Shown: positions 9,894 to 50,532, counted from the first letter of the stretch. The stretch: 64,000 nt of DNA from Candidatus Micrarchaeota archaeon (GCA_016188965.1 JACPGT010000013.1:116609-180608), one strand, 5' to 3'. The notes: a model not told the origin generated them from the sequence alone. Made by a program: numbers and translations.

Positions 9894-10331
9894 TCAGGCG
9901 AATCGCAGCAGCGACACGGAGAGGGCTTCCTTGCCGCGCTGGGGCGGCAGGCTGGCCAAGGCGTGCGAGTAGATGGCGGGGAAGTTTTCGAAGGCCTGCG
10001 TCAGGCTCGGCAAGCGGGATTGCTTTTCAAGATATGCGCCGACTTTCTTGCGGATGCCGCGGTCGTCGCCCAACGCGATGAGCAAGGTGACGACCAGGGA
10101 GTGCAGGGCGGGCAGCTTGGCGTGTTTGGCGAAGTTGGCGTCGCGGATGGATTGGAAGAACGCCTTGAGGAACGCCTGGGCGTCGCGGTACATGGCGGCT
10201 GTGGCCTTGAAGGGCTTCTTGAGGTACTTGGTCTTGGATAAAAGTTCCATCTGGGCGATTAGGCGCGAGCGGACCAGCGGGTTTTCGGACCAGTGCTTGA
10301 TTTTCTTGGATAAATCGGAACTCAACGACAT
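9894..10331 (-). CDS. Hypothetical basic helical protein
   Basis: GAGGTGA SD; starts 25 nt after the upstream gene; codon usage like neighbouring genes. Confidence 0.7.
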   Translation of the reverse strand: MSLSSDLSKKIKHWSENPLVRSRLIAQMELLSKTKYLKKPFKATAAMYRDAQAFLKAFFQSIRDANFAKHAKLPALHSLVVTLLIALGDDRGIRKKVGAYLEKQSRLPSLTQAFENFPAIYSHALASLPPQRGKEALSVSLLRFA

Positions 10332-10356
10332 GTACGGGTTTCACCTCAATTCGACA

Positions 10357-13122
10357 TCAATGTAAGCGGACCGTGCGGCGCTCCATCACGCGGGCGGCAT
10401 GTTCGTACGGCATCGCGGAACCGTATTCATGGATGGGGGCACGTTCTCCGCCGGCGTGGCCGTACACGCCGCTTTCGGCCAAGGCGCGGCTGACGGCGCC
10501 GGGCAGGTGTTCGTAGGGGGCTCCGGACATCGACGGGTGGGCCATCATGCCGGCCAGGCCGTGCAGAGCTTGTTTGTTGGCGGAAAAGTAGGATTCGTAC
10601 GTGCCGTGTTCTTCGTGGCCCAGGGCGTAAGGCGCAGGAAAGTGGCCGCGTTCGACCAAGCGGTCCAACGCACGGCCGACGAGTTTGCGTGCCTTGCGGG
10701 AGCTGCGGATGGCCGGCTGTTCCAAGGACTGTGGCAATTCGGATTGGTATGGCGTGGCCGTTTCCGCTTGGGGGGCCGGCGCTCCGTAGGCGTGGGCGTC
10801 TTGGGGGCCCATGTGTTCGTAGCCTTCTTCGTGTTCGTACGGCTCGCCATGTCCGTAGGGTTCTTCGTGCCCGTAGGGGTGTTCCGCTTCCGGCTCGTGC
10901 GCGCCGTAAGGCGCTTGCTCTTCCGACGGCTTGCCTTGTTCTCGGGGCCCGTATTTTTTCATCCATTCGGCAGCGTAGTGGCCCATCCATTCATGCATGT
11001 GGTCTTGCATCTGGCCCCAGTGGAATTGGGGTGCGAAGTTGAATTGCGGCGCGAACATGTTGTACATCGGAGGCATGGCGGCGTGCGGATATCCTACTCC
11101 GGCAAAAGCGTGGGCGCTGGCGTACGCGTGGGCGTCGTGGAATCCGGGACCGAAGGCCACGGGGGCCGCGTGTCCGAACGCCATGGGGCCGAACATGCCC
11201 GCTCCGGCGGCTGCCACGGGCGCCATGGGCATGCCGTGGCCGGCGTATGCGGAAGCGTGAGCATACGCTCCCGGAAACATCATTGGGCCAAAGCCTGCGT
11301 GGGCGGAAGCGTGGGCGAAAGCGCCTGGGTACATGGCGGGTCCATATCCGGCGTAAGCCGATGCGTGGGCAAAGGCACCGGGAAACATGACCGGCGCGGC
11401 GTGGCCCAAGATCATCGGGTGCGGCACGCCGGGGGCGATGTGCGGGTTGTAGTGGAAAGGCGCGTAGTTGAATTGGCCCATGAAGATGGGTCCGAACTGG
11501 GGGTGGAATCCGGCAATGGGAGCGGGCCGCTCAAACGGGGTAGGCCGGGTCTTGGAACGCCGGGGCGTACGCCGAACCGGTTCTTCCGCGGGCTTCGGAA
11601 TCTCGTAGGACGGCTCGATGACGCCGGGTTCTTCATTCGCCGTGTACGGAGTTTCGTACGGAGTGTCCCCGGTTCCGTAAGGGTCTTCGTAGGGTTCGAC
11701 GATTCCTTCGTGTCCGGGCGGCAGTTGGATTCCGGGAAGCGTCTTGGGATCGGCGCCGGTCAGCAGACCTAAGATGGCGGCCCAACCCGGATGCACGGGG
11801 CTTCCGGCAGCGGCCAAGGCGGCTTGGTTTTTCAATTCACCCAACAAGGGGCCGGCATTGCCCCAGTCGACGTGGGCCGTGACGCTTTTGACAAAGGGGC
11901 TGTATTGCGCCAATGCATGGATTTTTTGGACAAGAAGGCCTTGGTGGGCGGCGATTTGGGCAGGGGAGAGGGAGTCCATGGAGCCGAATTGTGTGTGGGC
12001 GCCTTTAGTCAGAAAGCCGGCGGCCAATTGCGGGTCGATGTTGCCGCGGCTGAGGATGCCTTGCAGGTGGATTTTGTTGCCGACCATGGCCGCGCCGGTC
12101 TGCGTGTCCAGCCGGATGTTGAGGTTTTCGTGGATGGACTGGAATAATTCATTGTGCTGCTGTACGGCGTTGCGTAGCGCATCGATCTGGGCTTGCTGCG
12201 CGCCGTGGCCCAACTGCCCGTCGGCATATCCGGCCAGTCCCATGGCCAATGCGCCGCCGAGGATTTTGTTGAACGAACCGGCGGCGCCCATGTCGGCGTC
12301 TTTTTGCGCTTCCAAGATGTGGAACAGAAAGTCTTTTTCGTTCTGGGCCAGGCCGCTGGGTTCGATGATGTTCTTGGCGAACGCTTCCTCGCGGGCGCGG
12401 TTGCCTTTGAGGGATTGGTAGAAGCTCTTGCCGGAGGCGCTTCCGTTCTGTAGGAGGGTGCCGATGCCGTTGTCAACGGCGTGCGCTTCGGTATGCATGC
12501 GGTTGCGGCTCCAGTGATCGAGGAAAGCCAAGCCGAAGAGGCTGGACAATTCCGCTTTCTCGTGTTGTTCCAGTTTTTCGACTTGTCCGTTCGCGGGGTT
12601 GACCCAGCGGTCCTGGAGCGCATCCGTCAGGATGGCCCGGACGTTGTCGCGGTGCGTGTCATTGTTGACCAACGCGGTAATCTGGCCCAGGTTGATCGCA
12701 CCGCCGCCTAAACCCATGCCGGCGAACAAGGTGCGCACGGTGCTTTGGCCTTCTGAAGAGAGGTTGAGGTTGCCGTACTTGCGGGAAAGGGAGCCGCCGA
12801 GGGCGTGGTCCAGAAGTTCGGCGGAACGTTTGTGGCTGGAGATGGATGAAACGCCTTGGCCGAAGTTGATGAAGCCCTTGGCGCCCACCAAGGCGGCGGG
12901 AAGCGACCAGCCGCCGGAGAGGGCGCCTACCATGCCGAGCGCGCCGGCGTTGGCAAATGCGTTGCGGACGAAGTCGCCCATGTCGGCTTTGGGGCCGCGG
13001 GATTTGGATTTGGAAATCTTGAAGCCTTGGCGGATGTTGTCGTAGAAACGACGCCGGATGTATCCGGGTCCGCCCGGCATGTCGGCGTCATGCCCGCCGA
13101 ACCAAGAGTCCCATATGGCCAT
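10357..13122 (-). CDS. Large hypothetical protein: Gly-rich hydrophobic segments, coiled coil, His/Pro/Gly/aromatic low-complexity tail
   Basis: Long ORF with typical codon usage; TTTTTAAA box about 25-30 nt upstream of ATG 13122; PGAFAHASAYAG and PYGHEE repeats. Confidence 0.85.
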   Translation of the reverse strand: MAIWDSWFGGHDADMPGGPGYIRRRFYDNIRQGFKISKSKSRGPKADMGDFVRNAFANAGALGMVGALSGGWSLPAALVGAKGFINFGQGVSSISSHKRSAELLDHALGGSLSRKYGNLNLSSEGQSTVRTLFAGMGLGGGAINLGQITALVNNDTHRDNVRAILTDALQDRWVNPANGQVEKLEQHEKAELSSLFGLAFLDHWSRNRMHTEAHAVDNGIGTLLQNGSASGKSFYQSLKGNRAREEAFAKNIIEPSGLAQNEKDFLFHILEAQKDADMGAAGSFNKILGGALAMGLAGYADGQLGHGAQQAQIDALRNAVQQHNELFQSIHENLNIRLDTQTGAAMVGNKIHLQGILSRGNIDPQLAAGFLTKGAHTQFGSMDSLSPAQIAAHQGLLVQKIHALAQYSPFVKSVTAHVDWGNAGPLLGELKNQAALAAAGSPVHPGWAAILGLLTGADPKTLPGIQLPPGHEGIVEPYEDPYGTGDTPYETPYTANEEPGVIEPSYEIPKPAEEPVRRTPRRSKTRPTPFERPAPIAGFHPQFGPIFMGQFNYAPFHYNPHIAPGVPHPMILGHAAPVMFPGAFAHASAYAGYGPAMYPGAFAHASAHAGFGPMMFPGAYAHASAYAGHGMPMAPVAAAGAGMFGPMAFGHAAPVAFGPGFHDAHAYASAHAFAGVGYPHAAMPPMYNMFAPQFNFAPQFHWGQMQDHMHEWMGHYAAEWMKKYGPREQGKPSEEQAPYGAHEPEAEHPYGHEEPYGHGEPYEHEEGYEHMGPQDAHAYGAPAPQAETATPYQSELPQSLEQPAIRSSRKARKLVGRALDRLVERGHFPAPYALGHEEHGTYESYFSANKQALHGLAGMMAHPSMSGAPYEHLPGAVSRALAESGVYGHAGGERAPIHEYGSAMPYEHAARVMERRTVRLH
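11240..11390 (-). repeat. Three coding tandem repeats of 18 aa (54 bp)
   Basis: MFPGAFAHASAYAGYGPA / MYPGAFAHASAHAGFGPM / MFPGAYAHASAYAG. Confidence 0.85.
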
Positions 13123-13203
13123 AACCAAAGTTACCATCAAGGAGGTTTAAAAATGCTCGCGTTTATGCGGGGGCATTCGCGTGGAAAAATCAAGCGGTTG
13201 CGC

Positions 13204-14937
13204 TCAACGGTACATGCGACGCGCCAGGCTGATGAGCCGGGTGTGGACTTCGTGGTGGCTGGCGCCGGGGATGGCGGCGCTGGTGGGGCGGATGGAGTGG
13301 ATGGCGTTGCGATACTCGTTGCCGAAGCCGTCGCCGCCTTCCATGATGTGGTCGCGTACGGCATTGATGCGGCCGCCGTGTACGGCGTCGTAGGCGTTTT
13401 TCAGTCCGCCCTCTTGGAACCGGACGTGCTTCTCGAGGGCGAGTTGGTTGAATTCGGATGCGACGTAGTTGGCGCGCCGCGGGTCGGTTCCGGCGTGGTG
13501 CAGGACGCCGCGCAACAGGGCCGCATGCAGGTGTTCGGCGACGTCGGCGGGCATGGCCGGATGCGCCAACGTGCGCACCACGTCCAGCAGGTTGGCCTTG
13601 CGCCGGGACAGCGCTTCTTCGAACGTTCCGCTTAATTGCTTGTCGGAAAAACCGAAGGGGTTCAAACCGGGCAGTCGGCCTTCTTGTTTGAGCGCGTCCA
13701 ATTCGCGGCCCAATGTGGCGCGGGCCTCTTTTGACGTGAAGATGTCCTTGTGCAGGAGCACCTGCATCAGTTCGGTCGCGTGTGGAGTCCGGGGTTCGGC
13801 TACCGGCGGTGTGCGGAACGGGTCGGAAGGACGGAATGCGTCCTCATGCGTGGAACCGTATGGATGCTCGGAGGGAGCCTGGCCGGGCATGAATCCATGC
13901 AGGCCCATCTGTTGCCAGTGTTCCGGCGGCACGTGCGCCAAGTGGGGGGCAAACCACGCGTATTGCGGAGCCCAGCCCGGATGAGCGGCGCCGAGAAGCG
14001 GACCGGCGTGGCCGCCTGGAAAAACGGGTGCGCCGTGGCCCGCCGGCATCACGGGGGCGTAGGGAAACGAGTGGTACGGGCCGTGGCCGAACATGGCCGG
14101 CTCGAAGGTGGGTCCGACGTGCGGCGCTTGAGGCGAAAAATGCGAGGGATGCATGCCGGGAAACAGGTACGGTCCGGCTTCGGGGCCCAGCCACGACGGG
14201 TGGGGCACGCCGTACGGCATGGACGGGTCGAAATGCGGAGGGAAACCGTAGGGCCCATAGGGCATGGCGCCGTATGGCGATCCGCCGGGAAAACCGGGCG
14301 GTCGTCCCGTTTGCGGACCCGTCCGCTCGCCGGGTCGTTGCGAACCAGGAGTGTTCGCACCGCGTTGCGTTCCGGGCGGCCTATCCGGTTGGCGCGAAGC
14401 GTCATGCGCCTCGGAGGCGGCGTGGTTGATGAGGTTGAGGAATTGGTGGAAGGGGTTGTTGGGGTTGTACCCGTTGAGTTCGCCGTAGGCCGCTTGGCTT
14501 TGAAGATGGGTGAAGAAGGAATCCAGGTTTCCGTGCCAGTCCAGAGGCTGGCCGCGTTTGTCGCTAAGTACGCCGGCTAAGCGGGCTTTGAGGGTGGCGT
14601 GTTGGGGGTCGTTGACGAGTTGTTCGACGGCGCGGGCAAGCAGGGCGTGGTTGTCGCCGAATTTTCCGACCATGGGAAAATCGGGGTCGTAGTCTTTGTG
14701 GCCGGGAAGGAGTTTCGAGGCGGGAACGTCGTTGACCGTTGCGAAGGATTTGCCGGACGGAAGCTTGTCTAGCCGGATGCGGTGCCGGACTTGGAAGAAT
14801 GAAGCGGGCAACAGTTCAGAGTGCAGGACGGCGGGTGCTTCCTGCATTTTTGGCAAAGGGCGAGCGTGGGTCGGTCCGCCTTCGTCGAGTTCTTCCTCGC
14901 CTTCCTCCGCATGAGCATGGTCTGACATGGGTGACAT
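13204..14937 (-). CDS. Hypothetical His/Pro-rich protein, partial paralogue of 10357..13122
   Basis: Central P/G/H/F/Y low-complexity region; C-terminal A..TLGRELDAL...GTFE...AHP.M....EHL domain shared with the neighbour. Confidence 0.85.
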   Translation of the reverse strand: MSPMSDHAHAEEGEEELDEGGPTHARPLPKMQEAPAVLHSELLPASFFQVRHRIRLDKLPSGKSFATVNDVPASKLLPGHKDYDPDFPMVGKFGDNHALLARAVEQLVNDPQHATLKARLAGVLSDKRGQPLDWHGNLDSFFTHLQSQAAYGELNGYNPNNPFHQFLNLINHAASEAHDASRQPDRPPGTQRGANTPGSQRPGERTGPQTGRPPGFPGGSPYGAMPYGPYGFPPHFDPSMPYGVPHPSWLGPEAGPYLFPGMHPSHFSPQAPHVGPTFEPAMFGHGPYHSFPYAPVMPAGHGAPVFPGGHAGPLLGAAHPGWAPQYAWFAPHLAHVPPEHWQQMGLHGFMPGQAPSEHPYGSTHEDAFRPSDPFRTPPVAEPRTPHATELMQVLLHKDIFTSKEARATLGRELDALKQEGRLPGLNPFGFSDKQLSGTFEEALSRRKANLLDVVRTLAHPAMPADVAEHLHAALLRGVLHHAGTDPRRANYVASEFNQLALEKHVRFQEGGLKNAYDAVHGGRINAVRDHIMEGGDGFGNEYRNAIHSIRPTSAAIPGASHHEVHTRLISLARRMYR

Positions 14938-15138: not shown

Positions 15139-15723
15139 TCAGGAAGTCGGCGTGGATGGGCCGCATTTCGCCGAGTAGAGGCTGTAGTCGGCGAGGGAAA
15201 TGTCGTCCTTGAGGGATTCGGGGATGGAGGCGACGAAGTACAGCGAGTAATCGCCGCAGGGCACGAGGCCTTGCACCATGTGGAGGGTTTCGCCGAATTC
15301 GTCAGGCGCGATGCGGTACTGCAAGCGGAGGATGCGGCGTCCGTCGACGGTCTGGACGGTTTCGGAATCAGGCGGGACGGCCAATTCGTCAAACGCGATG
15401 TCCTTGAGTTCTTCCAGCGTATACGTGCCGTTCACGACTTGGAAGACGAACGTCTCGGATAGGCCGGAGGGGCCGGGGGCGAAAAAAAGGGCGGTTTTGC
15501 CGTCTTCGACTTCCAACGGGTAGCCGACGGGGTAGCGGATGGAGTAGCCGCGCACGGCGTCGGTGAAAGCCAAGCTGTGCGACTCGTACTCGTCTGAATA
15601 AGAGACGGTCGTGGAAGCCGGTGAAAGCAACTCGGATGACCACGGGCCCAAGTCGGTGAAGAAGTAAGCGAACAAAACGGCGGCGGCGAACACCAGGGGT
15701 AGTGCGAGCGAGCGCAGGTTCAT
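15139..15723 (-). CDS. Membrane-anchored PsbP/DcrB-like protein
   Basis: N-terminal TM; GYSIRYPVGY, TVDGRR, YSLYF pattern; ATGA-coupled to the 3349-aa gene. Confidence 0.6.
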   Translation of the reverse strand: MNLRSLALPLVFAAAVLFAYFFTDLGPWSSELLSPASTTVSYSDEYESHSLAFTDAVRGYSIRYPVGYPLEVEDGKTALFFAPGPSGLSETFVFQVVNGTYTLEELKDIAFDELAVPPDSETVQTVDGRRILRLQYRIAPDEFGETLHMVQGLVPCGDYSLYFVASIPESLKDDISLADYSLYSAKCGPSTPTS

Positions 15724-18700
15724 GGTTTGGATCCTCCGGTCTGGCCTTTGGACAGCAGGCGGGTCAAGGCCTGGTCCGCGGCGGACAGTTTGGCGGCGCC
15801 TTCGGCGTCTTTTCCTGCCCGGAATGCGGCAATGGCCTGGTTGGCAAGGGCGATGATGGAGCGGCGGTCGGCATCGGACAGGGAATTCTTGAAACCGTCG
15901 GTGTTGACCTGGTCGATGAGGGCCTGCGCCGCTTGGATCTGCACTTGGCGGGCGGTGACTTTCGGATTCTCGGCCGCGGGCTGGTATTCCTTGAACCCGA
16001 CGGCGGGCAACGGCGCATAGTCGATGGACGAGCCGGGCGGAAGTTTCAACAGCTGGAGGTCAGCGGGCAGCAGGGGGGCTTCCTCCGGCAGGAAGATGGA
16101 GCCGATGAAGCGAGGGTCGACCAGCGCGTCGTCGTTGAATCCGACGACGAGGCCGTACGCTTGGGATTGGCCGTCGGGCCACTGCAACAAGCGGAAGCAG
16201 GTGCCCGAATTGCCGCAGAGCTTCGAGACGCTGATGACGTTGCCGGACTCGCATAAGCCGGACGCGCCCTTGATGCAGATGCTTTCGGCCGACGGCTTTC
16301 CTTTTTCGGTGTGGACGGCGATGACGTGACTGCCGCTGGAGTCGGCCGACACTTGGATCTGCACGGGCCGAAAATCGGTGTTGAACAGGAAGGCCGAAAG
16401 AAATGCCGCGAATGCGCTGGCGCCGCGGGCGAGGCGGGCGCGTCCGTCGGCGTTCAGTAGCTTGCGGGCCGCGGCTTGCTGGTCGGCCAGCGTTGCTTCC
16501 GCATCCGCCAACAACGACGGCGTCAACTTGGCGGGTTTTCCGTCGCGGTCGTACAGCTGCAAGTCGGCCAGCGCTTTGGCTTTCTGGGCAGGAGTCTTGG
16601 CGCCTTTAAGGAATCCGGTGGAGTCAAGACGGTTGGCACCGACCTCGGTAACCGACGCCACGCCTCCGAATGACGCGCCGATTTCGACGCCTTGGCGTCG
16701 GAACGCGTCGGAAAGATCGGTGAAGCTCAGCGCACCGTCTTCGAATCGTTTGACAATCGCCGCGCCGGTTTCGCCTGCGGCATTCGGGAATTTTCCGGTT
16801 TTGACGATGTCGTTGATGGCCGGCGCCAAACCAGTGCCCACGTCGGCAGATTGGATGAGTTGCAGGTAGCGGCTTTCCTTCTTCAATTGATCCAATAGGA
16901 CCTTGTTCTGCGCCGCGGTGCGTTTGCCTAAAGCGGTAACCACGTCAGCATCCGGAGCCGTATCCGGCAGGCTCAATTTTGTGCGCAAGAGTACGCCTGC
17001 TTCTTTTTCCAACGGCTCGAGGGCTTCGCCCATGAGGTTGGTCCGCATCGCGTTGCTGGAATGGATTAGAAACTTGGCGCCGCTGCCTTTTTCACTCGTG
17101 ACAATCAGGAATTTGGATTTCTCACCCGTAAGCTGTTCCAGCAGATACTCCTGGTTGGCCGCGGTCTGGAAGTAGTTCAGTCGGTCCAATTCAGCCATGC
17201 ATCCGGCGGGATTGCCACTGCAGCGGGTGAGCACACCCGCTGGAATCTTGTTCGTGGACCCTTTCAGTACTTCAAAAGTCTGGGGGCCGAATTCCGGCGA
17301 CTGCATCAGGGCCGAAAAAGTGGAGCGAAGGCGCGCCGTCAACGCATCGCCTTGCAAGCTGGCGGGGCCGGCGAGGCCCAGGTTTTCGACGAAGAACTGG
17401 CGGGCGGCAACGGGGTTTTCCTTGATTAGGTTGGTGGAAACCATGGCGTAACCTTGCTTGACTTTCGCCGGGTCCTTGCTGCCGATGAGGGCCGCGGCTG
17501 CCTTCTTGTCATCCGGCGACAGAAGCGCCATGCCGTGGAACAACGCATTGCTGAACGCATTTTCAGGTTTTCCGTTTCCGGCGTCATAGAACGCGCGGAC
17601 GGCTTGTTCCGTGGTGCGGCGGCCTTGCGCGCCGAAGAAGCCTTGGGCGGCAAAGGAGCTGGTCGCGGCTTGTATGTTCTTGCGATACGACTCGCCGGGC
17701 ATGAGGTTGATCATGTAGGAGCGGGCCGCGACTCCGCCGCTGTAGACTTTGTTGGGGGATAAGCCTTGACGCAGGACTAAAGTGATGGGAACAACTGGCG
17801 GCGTGGCGGTGACGTCGGGGCCGGCCAGATTCTCCAGGTACGCGACCGTCGCGCCGCCGACGATGCTCTGCAGGGCGAACGAGCCGACGGCGGAGCGCAT
17901 GGCGGTTCCTGTCAGGGTCGAACCGAGGGTCGTCGTGGACGTGGCGCGGAGCAACTGGGCTTCGGCGGCCAGGGGCTTCCAACCGCCGAAGAACGGATTG
18001 GCCATTTCGACCATGCCGGCTAATACCGACGAAGTGCAGGCTTCCAGGGCGCGGCAGGACAAGACGCTTCGGCCTTGGAAATATTCGGCCACGGCGCCGG
18101 CGCCGCAGCCGGATGCGGCGGTGATGAGGCGGTAGTTGGTGATGAAGGAGCGGACTCCGACGAGAAAGGAGGATCCGCCGGTGGCCGTGACGGAGGCGGG
18201 GTTGGCCGCTGCGATGGCTTGGAGGAGCGCCAGGCCCGTGACGGTGAGGCCCAACTTCGTCAGGACGGGTCCTCCGGTGCGCCAGCAGAAGTTCGCGTTC
18301 TCGTACGGAATGGCAGGACAGGGCTTGTCTTCGAATCCGGGTTTGTTGCAGTACTTGATTTTCGCGTCTTTGGCGTTGGCGCCGAACGCGGAGGCGTACG
18401 TCATCTTGACGGCGAGGGCGTCCTTGTCGTTGGCGTCCGAGCCGTACGTACCTAGCACGCCTTGGCGGAGGCGGCCCACGCTTTCCAGCATGGCGGCGAC
18501 TTTGCCTTTGTCGCCGGAGTTGACGGCGGATTGCGCCAAGCCGCCGACGGCGTTGAGCGTGTTCCAGGAAAAGACTTGCTTGACGGCGCCGATGACGCTG
18601 CCGGTGCCCAACTGGTTGCCGGCGTACGACACGGGCGTGTCGGCCGTCAGAAGCGCCGCGTTGGCCAAGTTGACGGGGCATTCCTGGAGTTTTTCGACGT

Positions 18701-25922: not shown

Positions 25923-26204
25923 ATGGACGTAAAAACCATCAAACGTAAAATAGCATCCATCCTCCAGCGGCACCACGTGAGCCGCGCAGGTGTGTTCGGA
26001 TCCGCTGCCCGTGACGAAATGCGCAACGACAGCGACGTAGACATACTGGTCCGATTCAAAAAAAACATCGGCCTGCTGGAATTCATCGCTCTCAAACTAC
26101 AGCTTGAAAAGGCGTTGGGATGCAAAGTCGACCTCGTGGAATACGACTCGCTCAAGCCGGCCCTCCGGGAAAAAGTCCTGGCTCAAGAGGTCCGCCTCGC
26201 ATGA
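25923..26204 (+). CDS. mntA: Minimal nucleotidyltransferase (MNT) antitoxin
   Basis: GVFGSAARDEMRNDSDVDILV...LEKALGCKVDLV. Confidence 0.92.
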   Translation: MDVKTIKRKIASILQRHHVSRAGVFGSAARDEMRNDSDVDILVRFKKNIGLLEFIALKLQLEKALGCKVDLVEYDSLKPALREKVLAQEVRLA

Positions 26205-36020: not shown

Positions 36021-36048
36021 AGGTCCACCAGAGAATAGTTTCGCACTC

Positions 36049-36231: not shown

Positions 36232-36660
36232 ATGAACTGGTACCAGCATTTCGCCGTCTCGCTTGCGGCCTGCCATCTGCTCAACGTGGCATCCGCGACG
36301 CCGTGGACCGGGCCGTTATTGGCCGCCGCCGCGCTGGGCGCGTGGCTTCCCGACGTAGACCATCAGAAAACCCGCATCTTCCACTTCGCACTCGCCGTCG
36401 TCTTCGCACTCGCTTTTTCATTCGTTTTCCTGACGGTCAACTTCCCGTTTTCCGCGAAGGTCTTCGCCGCCACGGCCGCAGGCTTTGCATCGGCGCTTTT
36501 ATTGTGGCTCATCAAGCCGCGTCACCGCGGCGTCACGCACCATGGGCTTGCCGCCGCCGTCTTCGGAATGCTGGTCTACGTCGTGAGCCAGAACGCGTCC
36601 GTGGCGGTCAACGGTTTCCTGGCGTACGGCATGCATTTGGTTGCGGACTGGGTTTCGTGA
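36232..36660 (+). CDS. YdjM-like membrane metal-dependent hydrolase
   Basis: H near the N-terminus, LPDVDH, HRGVTH, HLVAD; several TM segments. Confidence 0.85.
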   Translation: MNWYQHFAVSLAACHLLNVASATPWTGPLLAAAALGAWLPDVDHQKTRIFHFALAVVFALAFSFVFLTVNFPFSAKVFAATAAGFASALLLWLIKPRHRGVTHHGLAAAVFGMLVYVVSQNASVAVNGFLAYGMHLVADWVS

Positions 36661-42538: not shown

Positions 42539-43204
42539 CTATGCCGTGTATTCTTCCTCGAACTTGACGGACGTGACGCCATCCAGCACGGAAAACGCCT
42601 GTTCGATGAAGCGGAATTTCTTCAGCACCACGTCGGCCGCCATGTCCCGCTTGAGGGCCAGTTTGACCGACACGGAACCGTCCTTGAACGACGCCTCCGC
42701 CGACAACAACTTCCGCCCCAAGGCTTGGGCCTTGTCCTCGGCGGACCGGTACACCTTCTTCACCGTGAAATCGTACTGCACCGTCTTGCCGGCCAAGTCG
42801 GAATTGAAGTCGACGCGCACGCGGCCGCCATCCACGCTCTGCACTTTCGCCGGCCGGCCATCCATCTCCAACACCAAGCCGGGATAAGGATCGATCTTCT
42901 GTTCGCGGAACGCCGCCAGCGGCACCAAACGCACCAAATCCGGATTGCGGTTGCCGAAAGCCTTCTCCGGCGGCAGCTTGACGCTCTGCGCTTTTCCTTC
43001 CTCGGCACCCTGCAACGCATCATCCAAGCCTGGAATGACTTGGCCCTTGCCCACGGCGACCAGAACGGGGCCGTACGCGGCTTTCTCGTTGAAGATGCCG
43101 GCGGTCTTCGCCGCATCCGCCGACGTCGTGTCGAACAATTGGCCCTCGGCCTTCGCCGAGTACTCCAATTCGACCAAATCATTCTTCGAAACGTTCAAAG
43201 CCAT
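42539..43204 (-). CDS. slyD: Long-type archaeal FKBP peptidyl-prolyl isomerase (SlyD/MtfK-like)
   Basis: LFDTT, VGKGQVIPGLD, PPEKAFG, VRVDFNSDLAGKT; AGGTGG SD. Confidence 0.92.
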   Translation of the reverse strand: MALNVSKNDLVELEYSAKAEGQLFDTTSADAAKTAGIFNEKAAYGPVLVAVGKGQVIPGLDDALQGAEEGKAQSVKLPPEKAFGNRNPDLVRLVPLAAFREQKIDPYPGLVLEMDGRPAKVQSVDGGRVRVDFNSDLAGKTVQYDFTVKKVYRSAEDKAQALGRKLLSAEASFKDGSVSVKLALKRDMAADVVLKKFRFIEQAFSVLDGVTSVKFEEEYTA

Positions 43205-43227
43205 AGTATTCAAACCACCTGGAAAAA

Positions 43228-43962
43228 TCATTGGGAAGCGTTCGAACCGGACGCGACGGGCGAAGCAGACGCCGAAGCGTTGCCGGCCGACGCGTTGACC
43301 GAAGGCTCCGGCGACGCGGACGCACCCGCCGCAGGCGACGCCGTGCCCCCCCACGCGGACAGGACGTCCGATTCGAGCTGTTGGGCCGTGACGGACACGA
43401 ACTGGTTGTCCTGCACCACGACGGTGACGGACAGCTCCGCCTCGTCGCCCACGTCCAGCGAAGGCGAGACGAACGCCTGAAAACCCGCAAAGCCCTGATT
43501 CGAGAAATACGCGTCCAACTGGCGCGCCGACACGTCCTGCGAACCGGTCGACGTGTTCAACTCCAACTGCGCCGGAATCAAGTCCATGCCAGCCGAGCGG
43601 AACAGCGGCGCCTGGCAGGCGTCCGCCACACGCGATTCGACGAAGTCCAACGAAGCGTTCTTTTCGAACTGGATGGCCAACACGTCCGGCGAGGCGAACA
43701 AGGCATTGCGCACGCCCGGATAGGTCCGCAGTTCCTCATCCAACTTCGTGGCCGCACCGCACACCGCCAAACCGGCGTAACCCAGCTGAAGCACCTTGCC
43801 GCGCACCTGCGCGGTTCCCGAGAACGACAACGGCGTCGGACTCGGCCCGCCGTCGGCATCCGACGAACGCGCGGTGGAAAGGCCCAAAAAGACCGTCTCA
43901 CCCACGAAGACGACGATCAACAACAACGCGCCGTACTTGAGCAACTGATCGCGAGAAACCAT
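43228..43962 (-). CDS. Membrane-anchored hypothetical protein
   Basis: N-terminal TM (YGALLLIVVFVG) and a Ser/Ala/Pro tail. Confidence 0.75.
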   Translation of the reverse strand: MVSRDQLLKYGALLLIVVFVGETVFLGLSTARSSDADGGPSPTPLSFSGTAQVRGKVLQLGYAGLAVCGAATKLDEELRTYPGVRNALFASPDVLAIQFEKNASLDFVESRVADACQAPLFRSAGMDLIPAQLELNTSTGSQDVSARQLDAYFSNQGFAGFQAFVSPSLDVGDEAELSVTVVVQDNQFVSVTAQQLESDVLSAWGGTASPAAGASASPEPSVNASAGNASASASPVASGSNASQ

Positions 43963-44177: not shown

Positions 44178-44846
44178 TCAATTGGGACAGGCATCCGCCA
44201 ACGTCAGCATGACGCTGGGACCCAAGGTCCGGCGGTACTGCGCACTGCCATTGATATGCGTATAATCCAACAACGTCAATTCCACGTCGTAACGCGCATT
44301 GAAGCACTTCATCGTCAACGCGTACTTGTAATACGGACCCGTCTCGCCTTCGGTAAGCGACACGCGTTTTTCCGTGCCATTGGCGCCAACCACCGTGCGA
44401 ACCGTGTCGAACGCGCCGAACGCGTTTCCTTTGGACGGCCGGATGAAAATAGTGTACTGGTACGCCGCCTGGGTGTCATCCACCACCCACACGTTCTCCG
44501 CACTCTCATACGCCTTGCGCGAATCGTTGAACGCCGCATTCACCGCCACGTTGAACTCCGCCGCGAACTTTGCCAACGTAGGCACGCCGGCAGGCGCGGC
44601 GGTCGACACAGGCTTAGCCGAAGGCAACGTCGTCGGCTTGGCCGACGCGATGTACGGGATGCGGGCCGTCGGACTGGCTGACGCTGCAGCCGAAGGCGAT
44701 GCGGCCGCCACCGTCACGGACGGACTAGGCGACGCCGCGACCGAAGGCAACGCCGTAGGCGACGCCAACGGCGCGGAAGGCTGCGTACAACCGGCCAACA
44801 ATAAGCCGAACACTACCAAACCGTAAACCAGATTCTTGAAATCCAT
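44178..44846 (-). CDS. Predicted lipoprotein
   Basis: Signal peptide with lipobox LLAGC followed by a Ser/Pro/Ala linker. Confidence 0.8.
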   Translation of the reverse strand: MDFKNLVYGLVVFGLLLAGCTQPSAPLASPTALPSVAASPSPSVTVAAASPSAAASASPTARIPYIASAKPTTLPSAKPVSTAAPAGVPTLAKFAAEFNVAVNAAFNDSRKAYESAENVWVVDDTQAAYQYTIFIRPSKGNAFGAFDTVRTVVGANGTEKRVSLTEGETGPYYKYALTMKCFNARYDVELTLLDYTHINGSAQYRRTLGPSVMLTLADACPN

Positions 44847-45000: not shown

Positions 45001-45005
45001 AGAGC

Positions 45006-47843
45006 TTAGCGGCCCTGCAGGCTGTCGGCATTCTGCGACAACCAGGCGATCAGGCTGTTGGCAGCCGACGTCGTGTCCGACGCCGAGTAGCCGTAGACCA
45101 GGATCTTGTCACCCTGGACCTTGACCACCGGTTCATCCGAAGCCGAGGCAGCCGGAGCACCCGAGAGCGCCGAAGCGGCGACCGAGTTGACCAGCGGACC
45201 ACCGACGACGATCAGCGGCTGAGCACCAGCCGAGGCATCCGTCACGACCAGCGGAGACGCGGCCGTGTCCAACGGCGTGACCACGAAGGCCGTCTCCTGC
45301 GAAGGCTTCAAGCCGTCCGCGCCGGAAACTGAACCACCCGTCGAGCCACTCGACGCGCCCGCAGCCGTGATCGTCTTGACCACGACTTTGTAGCCGTTGT
45401 TGTCCAAAGCGGTTTCGCCCGCCTTGAAGTCCGTCGTCGCCTTGTTGGCGCCCGTGTCCGTTCCTGCCGTCGACAGCGTCGTCAAAGCATGAGCCAGCGT
45501 CGTCGCGTACTGAATTTCCGCGTTCGTCAAGCTCAAGGCCGCCAACTTGCTGCCACGAGGCGAGATGTAGCCCACTTCGTACAGCGTCGGCGTCGTAGCC
45601 GTCGTCGTGTACGTAGCCGCACCCAACGCCGTCAGCGGGAAGTAACCACCCGTGGCCGTGCCGCTTTCCAGCGACAAGTGAGGCGTGCTCGAGCTCGCCT
45701 GGCTTACACCCAGCGAGAAAGCGCCCTGCACGGAGTCTTCCGTCGTGACGTACTCGGGAACGAACAAACCACGGCGGATCGTCGTCATGTCACCCGCTTC
45801 GAAGCCAGCCGGCGTGATACGCAGGTAGACGAAGTTCGGTCCGTAGTTGTACTTCACGAAGTTGCTGCCCACGTTGTAGGACACACCCGTCGCGCCCTGG
45901 CCCGGCGTAATCGTGCCGTTCCAGTTCTCGAAGTTGATGCGCACCGTACCGGCGGCCAGACCCATCAGGGTGCCGTCAACCGTGGCGTTGCCGTTCGCGT
46001 TCGTCAGGACGATTCCCGAAGGCGTCAAGCGCGCGGCCGAAGCCGTCACGTTCGAAATCGCGGCTGCCGGGAACGTGGCTGCCGTAGCGAAGCCCGTGTC
46101 CGTACCGAAGGTCCAGACGCCCGCCATCATCGTCGAGTTGGCGGCCGTGTTGTTCGTGAACCGGGCACCCGTGCCGAAGTCGTAGACTTTCGCGCCCGTA
46201 CCCGTGCTGATGCGCACGTTGGTGGCGGACGTCGTGTAGGCCGCACCGGCCAGCACCATGGTGGTGCTGTAGTACGGTACGAAGTTCGACGTCGTCGGGT
46301 CACGGAAGAAGACCGTACCCGCAGAGCCGTTGCCAGCCGCCGTGGCGTCCGAGATGATGTAGAATTCACGGGCGTTGGTCGGGGCCGAAGCGGCGTCCGA
46401 GAAGTCGAACGGCGAGGTCAGCGTCGACTGTGCCAAGATGTAGGACAAATCGACGGTCGTCGTGTCCGTGGCGCTGGTCTGGAAGCTCTGCGAACCCGTC
46501 GCGAACGTCAGCTTGTCGTAGGAGACGTCGGCCAGGCCGTTGTACGTGAGCTTCATCAGGGCAGGCTTGTCCAGGAAGTTCAGCGAGTCGCCCTTGTTCA
46601 GGTCCGACGCGACCGAGCGCGTCAGTTGGACGCGGGCCAGCGAGTGACCGTAGGACGTTCCGCCTCCGACGAGGTTGACGCGCCAGTTCGTGTTGTCCGT
46701 GCTGACCGAGCTGGATTGCTGCAGGGCCAACTTGTCGGAAAAGACGCTGACTTGCGCGTAGCTGGTCTGACCCAGACCGGCGAAGACCTGGAAGACGCGG
46801 ATGACGATACCATTCTTGTTGTATTCGCCATCTTGCTGCAGCGTCGTCGTGTCGATCACGTTGCCGTTGGCATCGCTGACTTCGAACGAAACGGACAGCA
46901 ACTGCGCCGTACCGGTCGGGACGGCCGAGATGTCCTTGAGCTTGGCGGAAATGCCGTTCGGGGACGTGACAGTGTCACCGATCTGCATGAACTCCTTGTA
47001 GGAGACTTCCTTACCCAGCGTCAGAACTGACGTGGCAGGCAGGGCCGTGTCCGAGTTGAAGTTGTCCATGCCGACGATAATCCAGTCCGCGCCCAAAAGC
47101 TTGACCTTGACGCGGTGCTTGGTCGTCTTGTAGGTGTCCGAGCAGGTCGAGTCGTCCGGCGTGAATTCCGTACAAACCTGGATGGGGTTCGTAAAGATGG
47201 ATTCGTACGCGACTTGCGGGTTCTTGGCCTTGACCGTCTTGGTCGAGGCGTCGTACTGCGTCTTGGAGTAGACGTAGTAGCGTTCCTCCTGCGTGTACGA
47301 CTTGGACACTTGCGAGTCCGTAATCGCGCCCTTGAAGGCCAAAGCCGATTCCGAGGACGTGATCTTGCGGCCAGCGCTGGCGAACGGAGACGTTCCGCCC
47401 AGGATGGTGTTGGTGCCCGTCAGGTCGTTGACGCGGTCATCCGTCGTGTTCGTGTCCAGGAAGCCTTCGACGTAGGTCTTCATCTGGTAGGCCACGTTCG
47501 GGTTGACGCCCGGCGTCGTGATTTCCAAGGAGACTTTGTCATCCGTGGAGGTCGTGCTGGCCGTACCGCCCGAGCAGGACAGCAGGTCAGCGCCCAGGAC
47601 GGTGATGTCCTGCGACGTGTAGGCCATGTTGCCGATCATAGCGGCAATGTTGGCTGCGGCGACGGCGTCCGAGGGTTGGGCCTGGGAGCCGACGACGATC
47701 TTCAGGTTCGGAGCACCGTTCGAGAAAAACGGGAAGTTGCTCAGACCGCTGGAGTCCACTTGGACTGCGCCAGCAAAAGCGGCGCCCAGCAATGCAGCGC
47801 CGGCAGCAGCCGTCGCGATTTTCTTGACGTTCAAACTTTTCAC
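45006..47843 (-). CDS. S-layer protein (Methanococcales/Thermococcales-type N- and C-terminal domains)
   Basis: KKIATAAAGAALLG signal, IVVGSQAQPSDAVAAANIAA, C-terminal LIVVGGPLVNSVA...VYGYSASDT; strong codon bias; GAGGTGG SD. Confidence 0.93.
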   Translation of the reverse strand: MKSLNVKKIATAAAGAALLGAAFAGAVQVDSSGLSNFPFFSNGAPNLKIVVGSQAQPSDAVAAANIAAMIGNMAYTSQDITVLGADLLSCSGGTASTTSTDDKVSLEITTPGVNPNVAYQMKTYVEGFLDTNTTDDRVNDLTGTNTILGGTSPFASAGRKITSSESALAFKGAITDSQVSKSYTQEERYYVYSKTQYDASTKTVKAKNPQVAYESIFTNPIQVCTEFTPDDSTCSDTYKTTKHRVKVKLLGADWIIVGMDNFNSDTALPATSVLTLGKEVSYKEFMQIGDTVTSPNGISAKLKDISAVPTGTAQLLSVSFEVSDANGNVIDTTTLQQDGEYNKNGIVIRVFQVFAGLGQTSYAQVSVFSDKLALQQSSSVSTDNTNWRVNLVGGGTSYGHSLARVQLTRSVASDLNKGDSLNFLDKPALMKLTYNGLADVSYDKLTFATGSQSFQTSATDTTTVDLSYILAQSTLTSPFDFSDAASAPTNAREFYIISDATAAGNGSAGTVFFRDPTTSNFVPYYSTTMVLAGAAYTTSATNVRISTGTGAKVYDFGTGARFTNNTAANSTMMAGVWTFGTDTGFATAATFPAAAISNVTASAARLTPSGIVLTNANGNATVDGTLMGLAAGTVRINFENWNGTITPGQGATGVSYNVGSNFVKYNYGPNFVYLRITPAGFEAGDMTTIRRGLFVPEYVTTEDSVQGAFSLGVSQASSSTPHLSLESGTATGGYFPLTALGAATYTTTATTPTLYEVGYISPRGSKLAALSLTNAEIQYATTLAHALTTLSTAGTDTGANKATTDFKAGETALDNNGYKVVVKTITAAGASSGSTGGSVSGADGLKPSQETAFVVTPLDTAASPLVVTDASAGAQPLIVVGGPLVNSVAASALSGAPAASASDEPVVKVQGDKILVYGYSASDTTSAANSLIAWLSQNADSLQGR

Positions 47844-47999
47844 GGAACCACCTCGACGAACATCGTTCGTCTAGTTACCAAAACAACTTGCGGCCGTAAC
47901 CCGACGGACGTTGCTTTTCATTTCCCAAACCCCGGGAACAACGACAGTCCGTCCGGCCTTTAGCCGAAGCGGAATACTTATCGGAACCCGGTTTTTAAA
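47844..47999 (-). promoter_or_regulatory. S-layer promoter and structured 5' leader
   Basis: TTTAAAAA at 47999-47992; stems GACGGAC/GTCCGTC, TTCCC/GGGAA and GACGAAC/GTTCGTC, the last abutting the SD. Confidence 0.55.
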
Positions 48000-48294
48000 C
48001 CTTTCCAAAACCTTACGCTGTTTGACGAATAGCCCTCGGACAGGCCAAAACAGGCCGAAAAGGGGTCGAAAATCCGACGTTTGTCGAAAACCGGACGAAA
48101 CAGCGGCCATGCGCCTCACCCTCCCCTTTGCCTCGGAGCCCCCCCCACCGGCCGGCACGCGGTTTGGAATTGCTGGAGATTATTAGGATTTTCGTCATAT
48201 ATAATATAGGCGAAGCCAAACCCAAATGGCGAATATGTTACTACCAACAAGTTTATAAATAATGATTGTGAGTAATATAGCAGGCGAAAAAAGC

Positions 48295-48678
48295 ATGGCG
48301 CATGAATTCAACTCCCAACAAATCAAGCAGGTCGTCTCGGCCAACAAGGCCAAGTTCACCGGCGAGCACGGGCACGGACCGAAGGAATTCGAGCAGACGA
48401 CCATGTTCATCCCGGTGGCCACGGAAGGAAAAGCCGTCATCAACGTGCAGACGCGTCAGAAATTCCTGACAACGGGCATCACGAACTGGCGTATGTACCA
48501 CTTCCACCGCGCGGCGGCCATCATGGGCGCCGTGGCGGCCGTGTGGCTCATCTTCATCAACCCGTACCTCTCGGCGGCAGCCGGCATGGCCTCGGCCTGG
48601 AGCTATGGCGAGTACCTGAAGAAGGATTTCACGATCAACCACATCTACAAGAGCCGTCACCTGCTGGAAAGCACGTAG
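48295..48678 (+). CDS. Small membrane protein, unrecognised 'TRxxF/Y' family member A
   Basis: MFIPV..VINVQTRQKFL followed by a hydrophobic hairpin; TTTATAAA at 48252-48259. Confidence 0.8.
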   Translation: MAHEFNSQQIKQVVSANKAKFTGEHGHGPKEFEQTTMFIPVATEGKAVINVQTRQKFLTTGITNWRMYHFHRAAAIMGAVAAVWLIFINPYLSAAAGMASAWSYGEYLKKDFTINHIYKSRHLLEST

Positions 48679-48709
48679 GCGGAAGGAAAGGAACGAGGAT
48701 TCGTAAAAC

Positions 48710-49156
48710 ATGAGTGGACATGGACCCGTGGACCCGCGCGACCACCTGCTGCACGACATCGAGTCGACGGCCACGCCGGCGCACCACGCGGCGGAGGACG
48801 TCGAACACGCCATGCACGAGGCCCACGAAGAGCACGCGCAGGGCATCAGCACGGCGGACCACCCCCCGCACGTGTCGTACATGCCCATGGAAGTGGACCG
48901 CACGGTCCCGCCCAACCTGCGCCAGTTCACGCGGTGGGAATACCTCTCCGAATACGTCGAATGGTGGCGCCAGGGCGTCACGTCGAAAGTGCAGTCCGTG
49001 GTCTTTTTGGGCCTCGGGTTGCTGACGCTGGAAACGTTTCCGCCCGGCGCGTTGTTGATGTTCGCCTTGTCGGCGCGCCATCAGGACCTGGCCTGGATGT
49101 ACGACTTCATCGCCAAGAAGTTCGGCGCCTCCCGTACCTTGACGCTGGTCGATTAG
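48710..49156 (+). CDS. Small His-rich membrane protein, family member B
   Basis: SYMPME..VPPNLRQFTRWEYLS followed by a hydrophobic hairpin. Confidence 0.8.
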   Translation: MSGHGPVDPRDHLLHDIESTATPAHHAAEDVEHAMHEAHEEHAQGISTADHPPHVSYMPMEVDRTVPPNLRQFTRWEYLSEYVEWWRQGVTSKVQSVVFLGLGLLTLETFPPGALLMFALSARHQDLAWMYDFIAKKFGASRTLTLVD

Positions 49157-49301
49157 GAACGAAGAAAAACCTCTTTCATTTTTTTCAAAAAAACGAAAAA
49201 ACCCAAAAAAAAGGGAAAGCACGCGACACGGAAAAAACCGGAAAAGTCGCGAAAAAAGCCGAAAAACCTCGAAAAAAACCAACCAAACGTGAAACCGAAA
49301 A

Positions 49302-49508
49302 ATGGCGGAAGAAATCTACGAAGAAAAGGACGCGCCGTGGGAGACGCACTTGATGTCCTTCCTGGAGGACATGGGCCTAGTCAAGATCATCGACGGCCCG
49401 ACGGACTTCAAGACGGGCATGTTCGACCACGGATTCATCCTGCCGGATTGGATCATCAACGCCATCGTGGTGCTGACGGTCCTGTACTGGCTCTTCACGG
49501 TGAAATAA
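49302..49508 (+). CDS. Small acidic protein with a C-terminal TM
   Basis: 68 aa ending WIINAIVVLTVLYWLFTVK; 1-nt gap to the next gene. Confidence 0.75.
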   Translation: MAEEIYEEKDAPWETHLMSFLEDMGLVKIIDGPTDFKTGMFDHGFILPDWIINAIVVLTVLYWLFTVK

Positions 49509-49509
49509 G

Positions 49510-49983
49510 ATGGCCATGACCAACTACACAAGCTCGCACCTCGTCGAGTACGTCGAGAAGACCGGCGCCGCCAAAATCGAGGGGAAGGCTCAAGGCGGGC
49601 ATGACGCCCACGGCCAGAGCGGCCACGGAGGCGGCGACCACGGACGCCAGCTGCACCACATGTACGTGCCCATGAAGCAAGTGGGCCACATGATGGAAGG
49701 CGGCAAGAAAGTGCCGGTGCACAACCTGCACGTGCACACCCGTGCCCAGTTCCTCTCGGGTTTGGTGGACAGCGGCTTCCGCACGGGCGCTCTGGGTACG
49801 GCATACCGGTCGTACTTCTATGCCATCGTGTTCTTCGTGCTGACGGTGCTGACGTACAACGTCAGCCTGTACGTGGCCGCGGTGTTCGCGTACATGGCGG
49901 GCCTGCACTGGTCGCGCCGTCTGATCGAGCCGCCGTGGTCCGTCACCTGGTTCAAAGGAAAGGCCCTGTACCACACGAAGTAG
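49510..49983 (+). CDS. Small His/Gly-rich membrane protein, family member C
   Basis: MYVPMK..VPVHNLHVHTRAQFLS followed by two TM segments. Confidence 0.8.
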   Translation: MAMTNYTSSHLVEYVEKTGAAKIEGKAQGGHDAHGQSGHGGGDHGRQLHHMYVPMKQVGHMMEGGKKVPVHNLHVHTRAQFLSGLVDSGFRTGALGTAYRSYFYAIVFFVLTVLTYNVSLYVAAVFAYMAGLHWSRRLIEPPWSVTWFKGKALYHTK

Positions 49984-50226
49984 AAAACGACCATTCATTT
50001 CTTTTTTCATTTATCCAAAAAAAAGCAAATGCAAAAAAACCAAAAAAAAAACAAAAAACGCGAACGAGAAAAACGAAGGAAAACCGGATCGGAAAAGAAA
50101 GAAAACGAACGAAAACGCGAAGCAAAAAAAACAAAAAAAAGGAAAAAGCTGAATCCGCAATACGCGGAAAACGAACAAAAACAGGAAAAAAGCAAGCCAA
50201 CTTCGAAATAGCGAAGGTGTGAAAAG

Positions 50227-50532
50227 ATGAGTTCCGATATCGAGCACAACCCCGGCGTCGTCGTGTCCATGGGTATCACCGAAAGCAAGGTACCCATGCT
50301 GCGCGCCACCACGCGGTGGGACTACGTGTCGCGCTTCTTGGCCGTGTGGAAGGAGTACGTCCGCTTCCAGATCTACTACGGCGTGCTGCTCATTTTGGGC
50401 ATCTACCTGCTCTTCGTGCAGCCCGTGCTGGCCGTGCCGGCGCTGGCGGGTGCCGCGTACTTCTACCAGCTCAAGGAGTTCCGAAAAGAGCGCACCCTGC
50501 GATCGAAACGTACCGTCATCATCGGACACTAG
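50227..50532 (+). CDS. Small membrane protein, family member D
   Basis: VVVSMG..VPMLRATTRWDYVS followed by two TM segments; AGGTG SD. Confidence 0.8.
   Translation: MSSDIEHNPGVVVSMGITESKVPMLRATTRWDYVSRFLAVWKEYVRFQIYYGVLLILGIYLLFVQPVLAVPALAGAAYFYQLKEFRKERTLRSKRTVIIGH

Follow-up and report, generated by a model that had tools for sequence, protein, structure and literature searches.

A giant surface protein with a strain-exchanged loop in its hydrophobic tip, encoded among three separately inherited envelope modules of Norongarragalinales (Micrarchaeota)

We analyzed a 64,000-nucleotide window of a Candidatus Micrarchaeota archaeon (GCA_016188965.1, JACPGT010000013.1:116609-180608; contig C17 of the source genome G000, 1.37 Mb, 89% complete), in which an earlier, sequence-only reading had placed a host-contact or envelope apparatus of about 40 kb at 9,894–50,532. 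This block comprises three separately inherited envelope modules that lie together only in this genus of the order Norongarragalinales. The core module (module A) groups giant proteins with type II membrane anchors and ends with giant C and a PsbP-like partner. The others are an S-layer neighborhood (module B) and an operon of five small membrane proteins (module C). Giant C has an N-terminal anchor, a β-sandwich stalk, and a tip in which hydrophobic helices and a Cys-free loop are held between disulfide-rich ends, and the loop is exchanged between strains. We favor a model in which this tip inserts into another cell over those in which giant C is a plain adhesin, a multi-pass protein of its own membrane, or part of a single 40-kb machine. 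Hardly any proteins have been named for the attachment of DPANN archaea to other cells or for the opening of those cells. Giant C offers a single-copy, order-wide candidate with a defined tip, and the strain-level swap points to a residue range under selection.

Profiles from 19 orthologs show a fixed order of elements in the tip. A CxxxFC domain comes first, followed by a G-x-Y...Y-x-D...C element and then by a hydrophobic segment that includes two conserved, paired Cys; beyond a variable stretch lies the four-Cys end domain. Across the 44 orthologs for which both ends are available, the 130 residues past the conserved element have a grand average of hydropathy (GRAVY) of 0.24–1.10 (median 0.64) and 4%–15% charged residues, without exception (44/44). 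The best 19-residue hydropathy has medians of 1.6 (tip segment), 1.2 (closing helix), and 2.8 (anchor; 2.79 over 15 orthologs). The distal end of the loop is a Lys/Arg-rich helix that enters a short hydrophobic stretch. An AlphaFold2 model of residues 2206–2603, built from 50 sequences (mean predicted local distance difference test score [pLDDT] 83, predicted template modeling score 0.69), consists of an α/β domain followed by helices of 31, 31, and 19 residues. In a longer, 1,146-residue model (pLDDT 57), the variable stretch is helical at low confidence. Neither the 1,146-residue nor the 398-residue model (pLDDT 83) has a fold match at E ≤ 0.001 in PDB or BFVD; the best rows from VIA-align are generic three-helix bundles only (Z 8.8, root-mean-square deviation 4.2, 99 residues aligned), with the α/β domain barely covered, so that the lack of a match carries no weight. 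PDB sequence-profile searches with the tip and small-protein alignments gave nothing meaningful, and a search of the ESM Atlas with the hydrophobic segment returned chance-level rows (≤0.89; one DUF637 at 0.85).

The loop is the least conserved part of giant C, with 35%–51% identity to the window protein against 59%–70% elsewhere. Its length varies from 0 to 513 residues among the 44 orthologs, two of which have a loop of zero length. It lacks Cys in 43 of them, the exception being the window protein with 2 Cys, while Cys makes up 2%–5% of the flanking domains and 0.86% of the stalk. Two metagenome contigs have 94%–100% DNA identity both in the first 1,900 codons of giant C and in the last 200, and between these regions some 300 loop codons, with sharp edges, fall to 30%–34% protein and 40%–45% DNA identity. 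The PsbP-like proteins of the same two contigs are 93% identical. This divergence of about 300 residues between near-identical strains is an allele replacement.

Giant C is a conserved feature of the order. Of 68 Norongarragalinales genomes, 59 gave a match to its tip (two genomes have two matches, apparently from contig breaks, and the match in G002 is marginal), and a second scan found it in 23 of 25 in-order genomes and in none of 176 other Micrarchaeia. Here and below, labels of the type G001–G040 denote relative genomes and L-type labels loci, presence counts out of 41 refer to these relatives, and all co-distribution counts go back to a single gain in an ancestor and do not count as independent. 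Full-length orthologs range from 2,490 to 5,178 residues. Those of family f2 (L059:2383-17919 and L076:4140-19469) reach 5,100–5,200 residues through repeats of a stalk unit that matches residues ∼1250–1420 of the window protein.

The gene that follows giant C had been read as a translationally coupled PsbP-like protein. The coupling holds, with the ATG of the 194-residue gene overlapping the giant C stop by 4 nt, but the likeness to PsbP is weak: the family profile reaches E 0.03 to a cyanobacterial PsbP structure, and the window protein has no Pfam match. Weak Pfam matches occur among 21 orthologs, five to PsbP_2 (best E 0.006) and one to DcrB (E 0.067). The gene comes after giant C in all 51 genomes with continuous DNA, comprising 4 genomes, 18 of 18 loci chosen on PsbP (genes are inserted in 3 of them), and 29 of another 36 loci, of which the remaining 7 end inside giant C at a contig edge. 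It is present in 39 of the 41 relatives and in 11 of 11 in-order genomes, and matches weakly in 2 of 110 other Micrarchaeia.

These features are consistent with a model in which giant C is a motor-less contact protein that inserts its tip into the membrane of another cell and exposes the loop to that cell's cytoplasm, and we put its probability at just short of even. The tip is a long, marginally hydrophobic, Gly-rich helical hairpin, as in α-helical pore formers and translocators, and the export and later insertion of such helices is an established principle for both groups. Marginal hydrophobicity would thus allow the tip helices, too weakly hydrophobic to halt export, to leave the cell with the ectodomain. 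The stalk, of about 20 domains and by our own estimate 70–85 nm if extended, would clear the S-layer, and on contact the helices would insert into a partner, host, or prey membrane without need of a motor. A domain that lacks Cys and sits between two marginal membrane helices, on an ectodomain rich in disulfides, would belong in a reducing compartment, and fast allele turnover suggests that this compartment is not the cell's own. The two flanking helices would place the loop in the partner cytoplasm, where it would meet a changing target, which could account for the allele swapping. By analogy with Eag chaperones, the hydrophobic tip probably has the PsbP-like protein as its cap or chaperone.

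Several observations weigh against this model. Insertion into a foreign membrane is suggested by composition alone, and AlphaFold2 models the hydrophobic helices as an ordinary three-helix bundle, possibly a buried soluble core. The PsbP assignment is weak (E 0.03, as above), and the protein is membrane anchored with a disulfide, unlike the cytoplasmic Eag proteins. Even the exchanged loops are alleles that share homology, rather than toxin domains of unrelated origin; no toxin or enzyme family matches significantly in 19 giant C tips; and G000 holds a single tip, loop, and end domain, and neither orphan cassettes nor spare genes for the partner. Strict conservation in one copy would suit a housekeeping function in the envelope as well. 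In addition, Norongarragalinales have been proposed to be potentially host independent (PMC12892359).

If giant C were instead a plain long adhesin or antenna, the helices would be buried as the core of a soluble tip, and the variable loop, outermost on its surface, would have diversified through virus escape or through recognition of kin, substrate, or host glycans. Virus receptors, too, typically show allele swapping, and the tip bundle folds confidently without a membrane in the AlphaFold2 model. Ig-like stalks, moreover, are typical of DPANN surface proteins (10.1101/2023.10.27.564410, PMC10266531). Three features argue otherwise and lead us to consider this explanation rather unlikely: every ortholog has 100–190 nearly uncharged, Gly-rich residues, an uncommon feature in soluble domains; Cys is avoided by the loop but by none of its disulfide-rich neighbors; and the basic-then-hydrophobic helix that closes the loop is a membrane-crossing signature.

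The Cys-free loop and the positive-inside pattern would suit any cytoplasm, including that of the producing cell. The tip helices might therefore re-enter the producer membrane and hold the loop in its own cytoplasm as a signaling or scaffolding domain, with a stalk that arches back or spans to a second membrane or division site. Single-copy conservation agrees with such a role, as do gene pairs that, by reading of their sequences, we take to be ftsZ-like and that adjoin giants in G007 and G015. In G003, G006, and G023 such pairs adjoin the S-layer gene (L039, L040, L198/L199, L025, and L067 for both settings). However, the tip helices are far less hydrophobic than the anchor, stalk length differs by >2,000 residues, and a domain in the cell's own cytoplasm would have little reason to vary so widely in length or to swap between near-identical strains. 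We think this explanation improbable, more so than an adhesin.

About 20–25 kb of giant surface genes are kept in genomes quoted at 0.7–1.6 Mb for the order, which suggests that contact biology still matters and bears on the host-independence proposal. The type genome of the order is auxotrophic for most amino acids and encodes type IV pili and an M23 peptidase (PMC8561730). The main text of the host-independence study (PMC12892359) uses none of the words S-layer, surface, giant, or adhesion. We consider less likely than not the bolder proposal of a new ATPase-free machine, in which a tethered giant would plant a hairpin in the membrane of another cell and expose a strain-swappable effector loop to its cytoplasm while remaining anchored in the producer, with a PsbP-fold cap and possibly a five-subunit membrane base. 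Were it correct, it would give a supposedly free-living order a predatory or parasitic tool and would name concrete genes for a DPANN cell-cell bridge.

Giant C belongs to a larger family, present in all 41 relatives with multiple copies in each. As the sequence-only reading had it, the three giants of the window (C, A, and B, with 3,349, 2,025, and 1,804 residues) are paralogs, with a common N-terminal amphipathic segment, signal-anchor helix, and CarboxypepD_reg repeats. Family-wide, the N terminus consists of a short cytoplasmic amphipathic segment, a G-I-P motif, and the signal anchor. An anchor profile matches from its first positions in 11 of 11 in-order genomes, and 20 of 110 other Micrarchaeia match only the generic β-sandwich part; the anchor alignment is too variable for a collection-wide scan. 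Beyond the order, word-index protein searches, with five matches each, are insensitive and do not exclude giants in other phyla such as Iainarchaeota. A named relative of giant B belongs to Ca. Norongarragalina. G000 has two additional anchored giants outside the block (C13:57953-64429 and C1:47462-54301). Relatives of the C13 giant (G001 C9, G002 C70) end in a very hydrophobic, Cys-bounded hairpin (100-residue GRAVY 1.3–1.4) that the G000 copy has mostly lost. Such terminal helices also occur in some unlinked giant paralogs of relatives; the window giants A and B do not have them. A stand-alone 171-residue protein in G007 (L024:11765-12280) consists of a giant-type anchor and a short tail.

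The block as a whole does not behave as one locus. From 9,894 to 47,843 its main genes are all on the minus strand, in the order 145-residue orphan, His927, His577, PsbP-like, giant C, cys985, giant A, giant B, FKBP26, g244, lipoprotein, and S-layer; the plus strand carries the MNT-HepT pair, ydjM, the five small genes at 48,262–50,532, and then a tRNA. The 40 kb are whole only within the genus. G001 keeps the entire block apart from the His pair, with an inversion of giant B and ydjM and with different small genes in place of the toxin-antitoxin pair; in G002 the portion from giant A through the operon is present; and two metagenome contigs of close relatives keep the order giant C, PsbP-like, His577, His927. 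Beyond the genus the modules lie apart. On single contigs, the S-layer and PsbP-like genes are at 119 and 301 kb in G007 (180 kb apart) and at 993 and 293 kb in G030 (∼700 kb apart), where the operon is at 1,206 kb. The giant cluster reads through to ydjM and beyond in G030, G036, and G040 with no S-layer gene. One non-C giant paralog lies 10 kb from the S-layer gene in G030, and in G023 the giant-PsbP and S-layer modules are 40 kb apart with unrelated genes in between.

Of the apparatus with stalks, variable tips, and a membrane-active element that had been proposed, the parts are visible, the last of them in giant C, and the single 40-kb locus is not. Not all genes are surface orphans: the block includes MNT-HepT, a YdjM-family gene, the FKBP, and the soluble 145-residue gene, and His927 and His577 are soluble as well. 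The reported lack of an ATPase motor is borne out: no ATPase family matches in the region in Pfam and NCBIfam scans, and a single Walker-A-like word, in giant A, is at chance level. Host contact is not established; of all Micrarchaeota this order has been proposed to depend least on hosts (PMC12892359), and sampling of other orders did not turn up the modules. The core families do share a distribution (11/11 sampled in-order genomes, essentially none of 110 other Micrarchaeia), but this represents one evolutionary event and so gives no independent proof of shared function.

A single co-inherited apparatus for host contact that spans all 40 kb, in which the small His-rich membrane proteins would serve as base and the large His-rich proteins as payload, would agree with the synteny of the entire block within the genus and with the common order-restricted profile of the giants, the PsbP-like gene, and the small operon. 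We nevertheless give it the least credence of the four explanations. The distances between modules outside the genus already refute it as a locus, a single shared origin does not equal correlation, and FKBP26 is a general cytoplasmic foldase. The His pair, moreover, has no export signal and was not found in any of five genomes tested (G001, G002, G009, G004, G007).

His927 and His577 contain no hydrophobic segment and no Cys. Distant homologs carry the N-terminal half of His927 and the C-terminal half of His577, which identifies the pair as a tandem duplication of one protein of ∼890 residues. His content is 5.9%–8.3% in four window proteins against 2.1% genome-wide, 3.0%–3.7% in three more distant His927 homologs, and about 2% (median) in the small-protein family. 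His-rich paralog sets are present at both ends of the block, as had been noted; homology between the two ends was rejected by comparison, and His-richness as a functional theme was rejected in favor of local decoration.

Module B is an S-layer neighborhood, not a giant-protein one. The FKBP, lipoprotein, and S-layer genes named in the sequence-only reading are all confirmed, as an FKBP26-type peptidyl-prolyl isomerase, a lipobox protein, and a protein that scores above the S_layer_C/TIGR01564 cut-off and is of methanococcal/thermococcal type. Of the 41 relatives, 24 have a match to g244. The gene is no more than about 3 kb from the S-layer gene, usually with FKBP26, in G000, G001, G002, G008, G009, G015, G019, G025, G026, G032, and G039. 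An FKBP dedicated to the Pro-rich giants was rejected: the FKBP travels with the S-layer gene, and the genome has a second FKBP.

Four of the five proteins of module C are paralogous (profile-profile probability 82%–99%). Each has a cytoplasmic β-hairpin that ends in T-R, followed by an amphipathic helix and a tight hairpin of two helices; then come a basic helix and, last, a strand. The cluster is present in 36 of 41 relatives, mostly with exactly four matches, in 11 of 11 in-order genomes, and in 1 of 110 other Micrarchaeia at E 6e-4. Gene order is the same in the 19 operon loci where genes were resolved, the exceptions being G026, in which the last two genes trade places, and G011, which has a divergent set; the single-transmembrane gene is clustered at at least 15 of the 19, and pyrG is often downstream. 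The family numbers 146 members among 1.84 billion representatives, without a long tail; they divide 35/27/37/47 across the four types, and among the 10 of 146 looked up one weak member is named, from Micrarchaeota. Of 30 family loci among 185,579 species genomes, 28 are from Micrarchaeota, Micrarchaeia, or Norongarragalinales, and 2 are labeled only "archaeon". The operon is head-to-head with the S-layer gene in 18 of 22 family-f1 genomes having both (on separate contigs in the other 4) and faces it at 0 of 9 loci in other families. The S-layer and operon regions of G039:C41 and G012:C32 have the same lengths and near-identical scores in different families; this is probably bin contamination, and the G039 copy was not counted.

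VirB3/PrgI/TcpE, CURT1, and SPCS1/2 are small two-helix membrane complexes that resemble module C in having a membrane hairpin flanked by basic amphipathic helices and several paralogs per cell. None of 44 hairpin members matches their Pfam families at E ≤ 0.2. Unlike VirB3/PrgI/TcpE, module C has no VirB4 neighbor, and its usual downstream gene is pyrG; a PrgI/VirB3 identity was rejected for want of a Pfam match and a VirB4 neighbor. A search of the ESM Atlas with the 148-residue hairpin protein gave no usable match. Module C most likely forms its own hetero-oligomeric membrane complex of fixed stoichiometry, tied to envelope or S-layer biogenesis, with S-layer co-regulation in one family, and is possibly a candidate base for the giants. 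It is both a marker of the order that has not been described before and a candidate complex for building the envelope.

A second conserved cluster, of 6–9 small membrane proteins ("MDFTFLFI..." gene and neighbors; G000 C13:47500-56300, L027/L028, L060, L073), sits immediately behind the giant-PsbP module in G030, G031, and G034, and in the genus of the window it is close to the C13 giant; it is a better candidate membrane base than module C. A DUF424 gene (L060:2899-3213 and equivalents) follows the PsbP-like gene in several families; it is confirmed in one, with similar N termini in G028, G030, G031, G032, G035, and G037.

Giants A and B may be accessory stalks or adhesins; in relatives giant A is usually immediately upstream of giant C. 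The ydjM gene is divergent from a giant gene in six genomes (G000, G001, G030, G032, G036, G040). The Cys-rich partner described earlier corresponds to cys985, which has 19 Cys in its last 185 residues; its positional ortholog in G001 has only the N-terminal ∼40 residues in common with it. The MNT-HepT pair, adjacent nucleotidyltransferase and HepT genes as in type VII toxin-antitoxin systems, is a passenger. Other small modules occupy the same slot in relatives, and a copy 81%/68% identical behind another giant in G002 indicates that the pair is mobile. To the left of the block (window 5111–9791) are an orphan with, read by eye, an FHA-like-looking N terminus and an internal twin-Arg-like segment (no Pfam match), a divergent GT2-like protein (E 3e-4), and a 275-residue basic orphan. 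The tRNA that closes the block has a ∼40-nt insertion in the anticodon arm; it matches in Rfam, was missed by ARAGORN, and is likely an intron-containing tRNA-Asn.

Table 1. Positions in the window of the genes and giant C segments discussed in the text (aa, amino acids; res, residues)
Feature	Position	Strand	Remarks
145-aa soluble orphan	9894-10331	-	Position conserved within genus
His927 and His577, tandem duplicates of ~890-aa soluble protein	10357-14937	-	Sub-genus accessory
PsbP/DcrB-like protein, 194 aa; N-terminal membrane anchor, one invariant Cys pair	15139-15723	-	Coupled to giant C
Giant C, 3349 aa, signal-anchored	15720-25769	-	Single-copy, order-wide
Giant C four-Cys C-terminal beta domain, res 3124-3235	16065-16400	-	Conserved
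Giant C basic amphipathic helix into short hydrophobic stretch, res ~3095-3123	16401-16487	-	
Giant C hypervariable Cys-free helical loop, res ~2666-3085	16515-17774	-	Allele-swap site
Giant C uncharged Gly/Ala/Ser-rich hydrophobic segment, res ~2495-2665	17775-18287	-	First part modeled as three long helices
Giant C disulfide-rich alpha/beta domain, res 2209-2387 (CxxxFC ... GCGxY ... LANA)	18609-19145	-	Conserved
Giant C stalk, CarboxypepD_reg and other Ig-like beta-sandwich repeats	19170-25607	-	Variable length
Giant C signal-anchor helix, res 31-49	25623-25679	-	Follows cytoplasmic amphipathic segment ending in conserved E-x-x-G-I-P
MNT-HepT (type VII) toxin-antitoxin pair	25923-26560	+	Pfam above cut-off; NCBIfam just below
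cys985, 985 aa; N-terminal hydrophobic helix, Cys-rich C terminus	26975-29932	-	
Giant A, 2025 aa, same anchor; Gln/Tyr/Gly/Pro-rich C-terminal part	29943-36020	-	
YdjM-family membrane protein	36232-36660	+	
Giant B, 1804 aa, same anchor	36792-42206	-	Inverted together with ydjM in G001
FKBP26/SlyD-type peptidyl-prolyl isomerase	42539-43204	-	Module B
g244, 244 aa, N-terminally anchored	43228-43962	-	Module B
Lipobox protein, Pro/Ser/Thr linker, variable	44178-44846	-	Module B
S-layer protein	45006-47843	-	S_layer_C, TIGR01564
Five-gene operon: four paralogous two-helix hairpin proteins (138, 148, 157, 101 aa) and 68-aa single-transmembrane protein	48262-50532	+	
68-aa single-transmembrane gene	49302-49508	+	Within five-gene operon
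tRNA gene with insertion (likely intron)	50954-51067	+	Rfam; closes block

Among known systems, CdiA and other polymorphic toxins combine a long stalk, a membrane-translocating segment, an exchangeable distal module, and a small gene directly downstream. Giant C likewise has an exchangeable module, the internal allele swap of ∼300 residues. In contrast to CdiA, its variable part is internal and allelic rather than a C-terminal toxin, and the C terminus is the conserved four-Cys domain. The downstream PsbP-like gene is conserved across the swap instead of co-varying with it, and there is no two-partner secretion; orphan toxin cassettes were rejected, with none in G000. The giant C system is therefore not a polymorphic toxin by membership.

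Eag chaperones (DUF1795), which are DcrB homologs, shield the hydrophobic helices of type VI secretion system (T6SS) effectors (PMC7773334). Giant C shares with this system hydrophobic helices beside a variable payload; its adjacent gene is only weakly assigned to the PsbP/DcrB fold group. Its helices, however, are C-terminal on an anchored stalk and its payload is an internal loop, and the membrane anchor and invariant Cys pair of the partner suggest that it acts outside the cell, whereas Eag proteins are cytoplasmic. Neither giant C nor the 19 tips have a Pfam or NCBIfam match to prePAAR/PAAR, VgrG, or T6SS families.

The "SPEARE" giants of Nanohaloarchaeota, of 8,900–9,400 residues, carry a VirB4/TraG ATPase, with a second ATPase adjoining, and have been proposed to bind hosts and deliver effectors (PMC10266531). 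Giant C is likewise a giant membrane-anchored protein with an Ig-like stalk in a DPANN lineage, but it lacks an ATPase and differs in tip architecture; PF19044, the VirB4/TraG family, has no match in G000 (89% complete), with the control positive in 7 of 14. In Microcaldus ARM-1, host-derived nanotubes form bridges of about 70 nm between cells, their proteins unidentified (PMC11329633). The bridge length is similar to that estimated for giant C, but those tubes come from the host. Contact structures are also reported from Nanobdellota YN1. DPANN contact structures further include pilus loci with coiled-coil proteins (PMC11291902), and Omnitrophota encode giants of >10,000 residues with SecA-like domains (10.1101/2023.11.21.568195). 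None of these compared structures matches the architecture of giant C. Searches of open-license PubMed Central and bioRxiv main texts, without supplements, turned up no account of the giant or operon families, though the gene tables of PMC12892359 could list their orthogroups. The narrower and better-supported finding is that giant C is a variant of the giant DPANN surface proteins, in families without a description in the literature searched.

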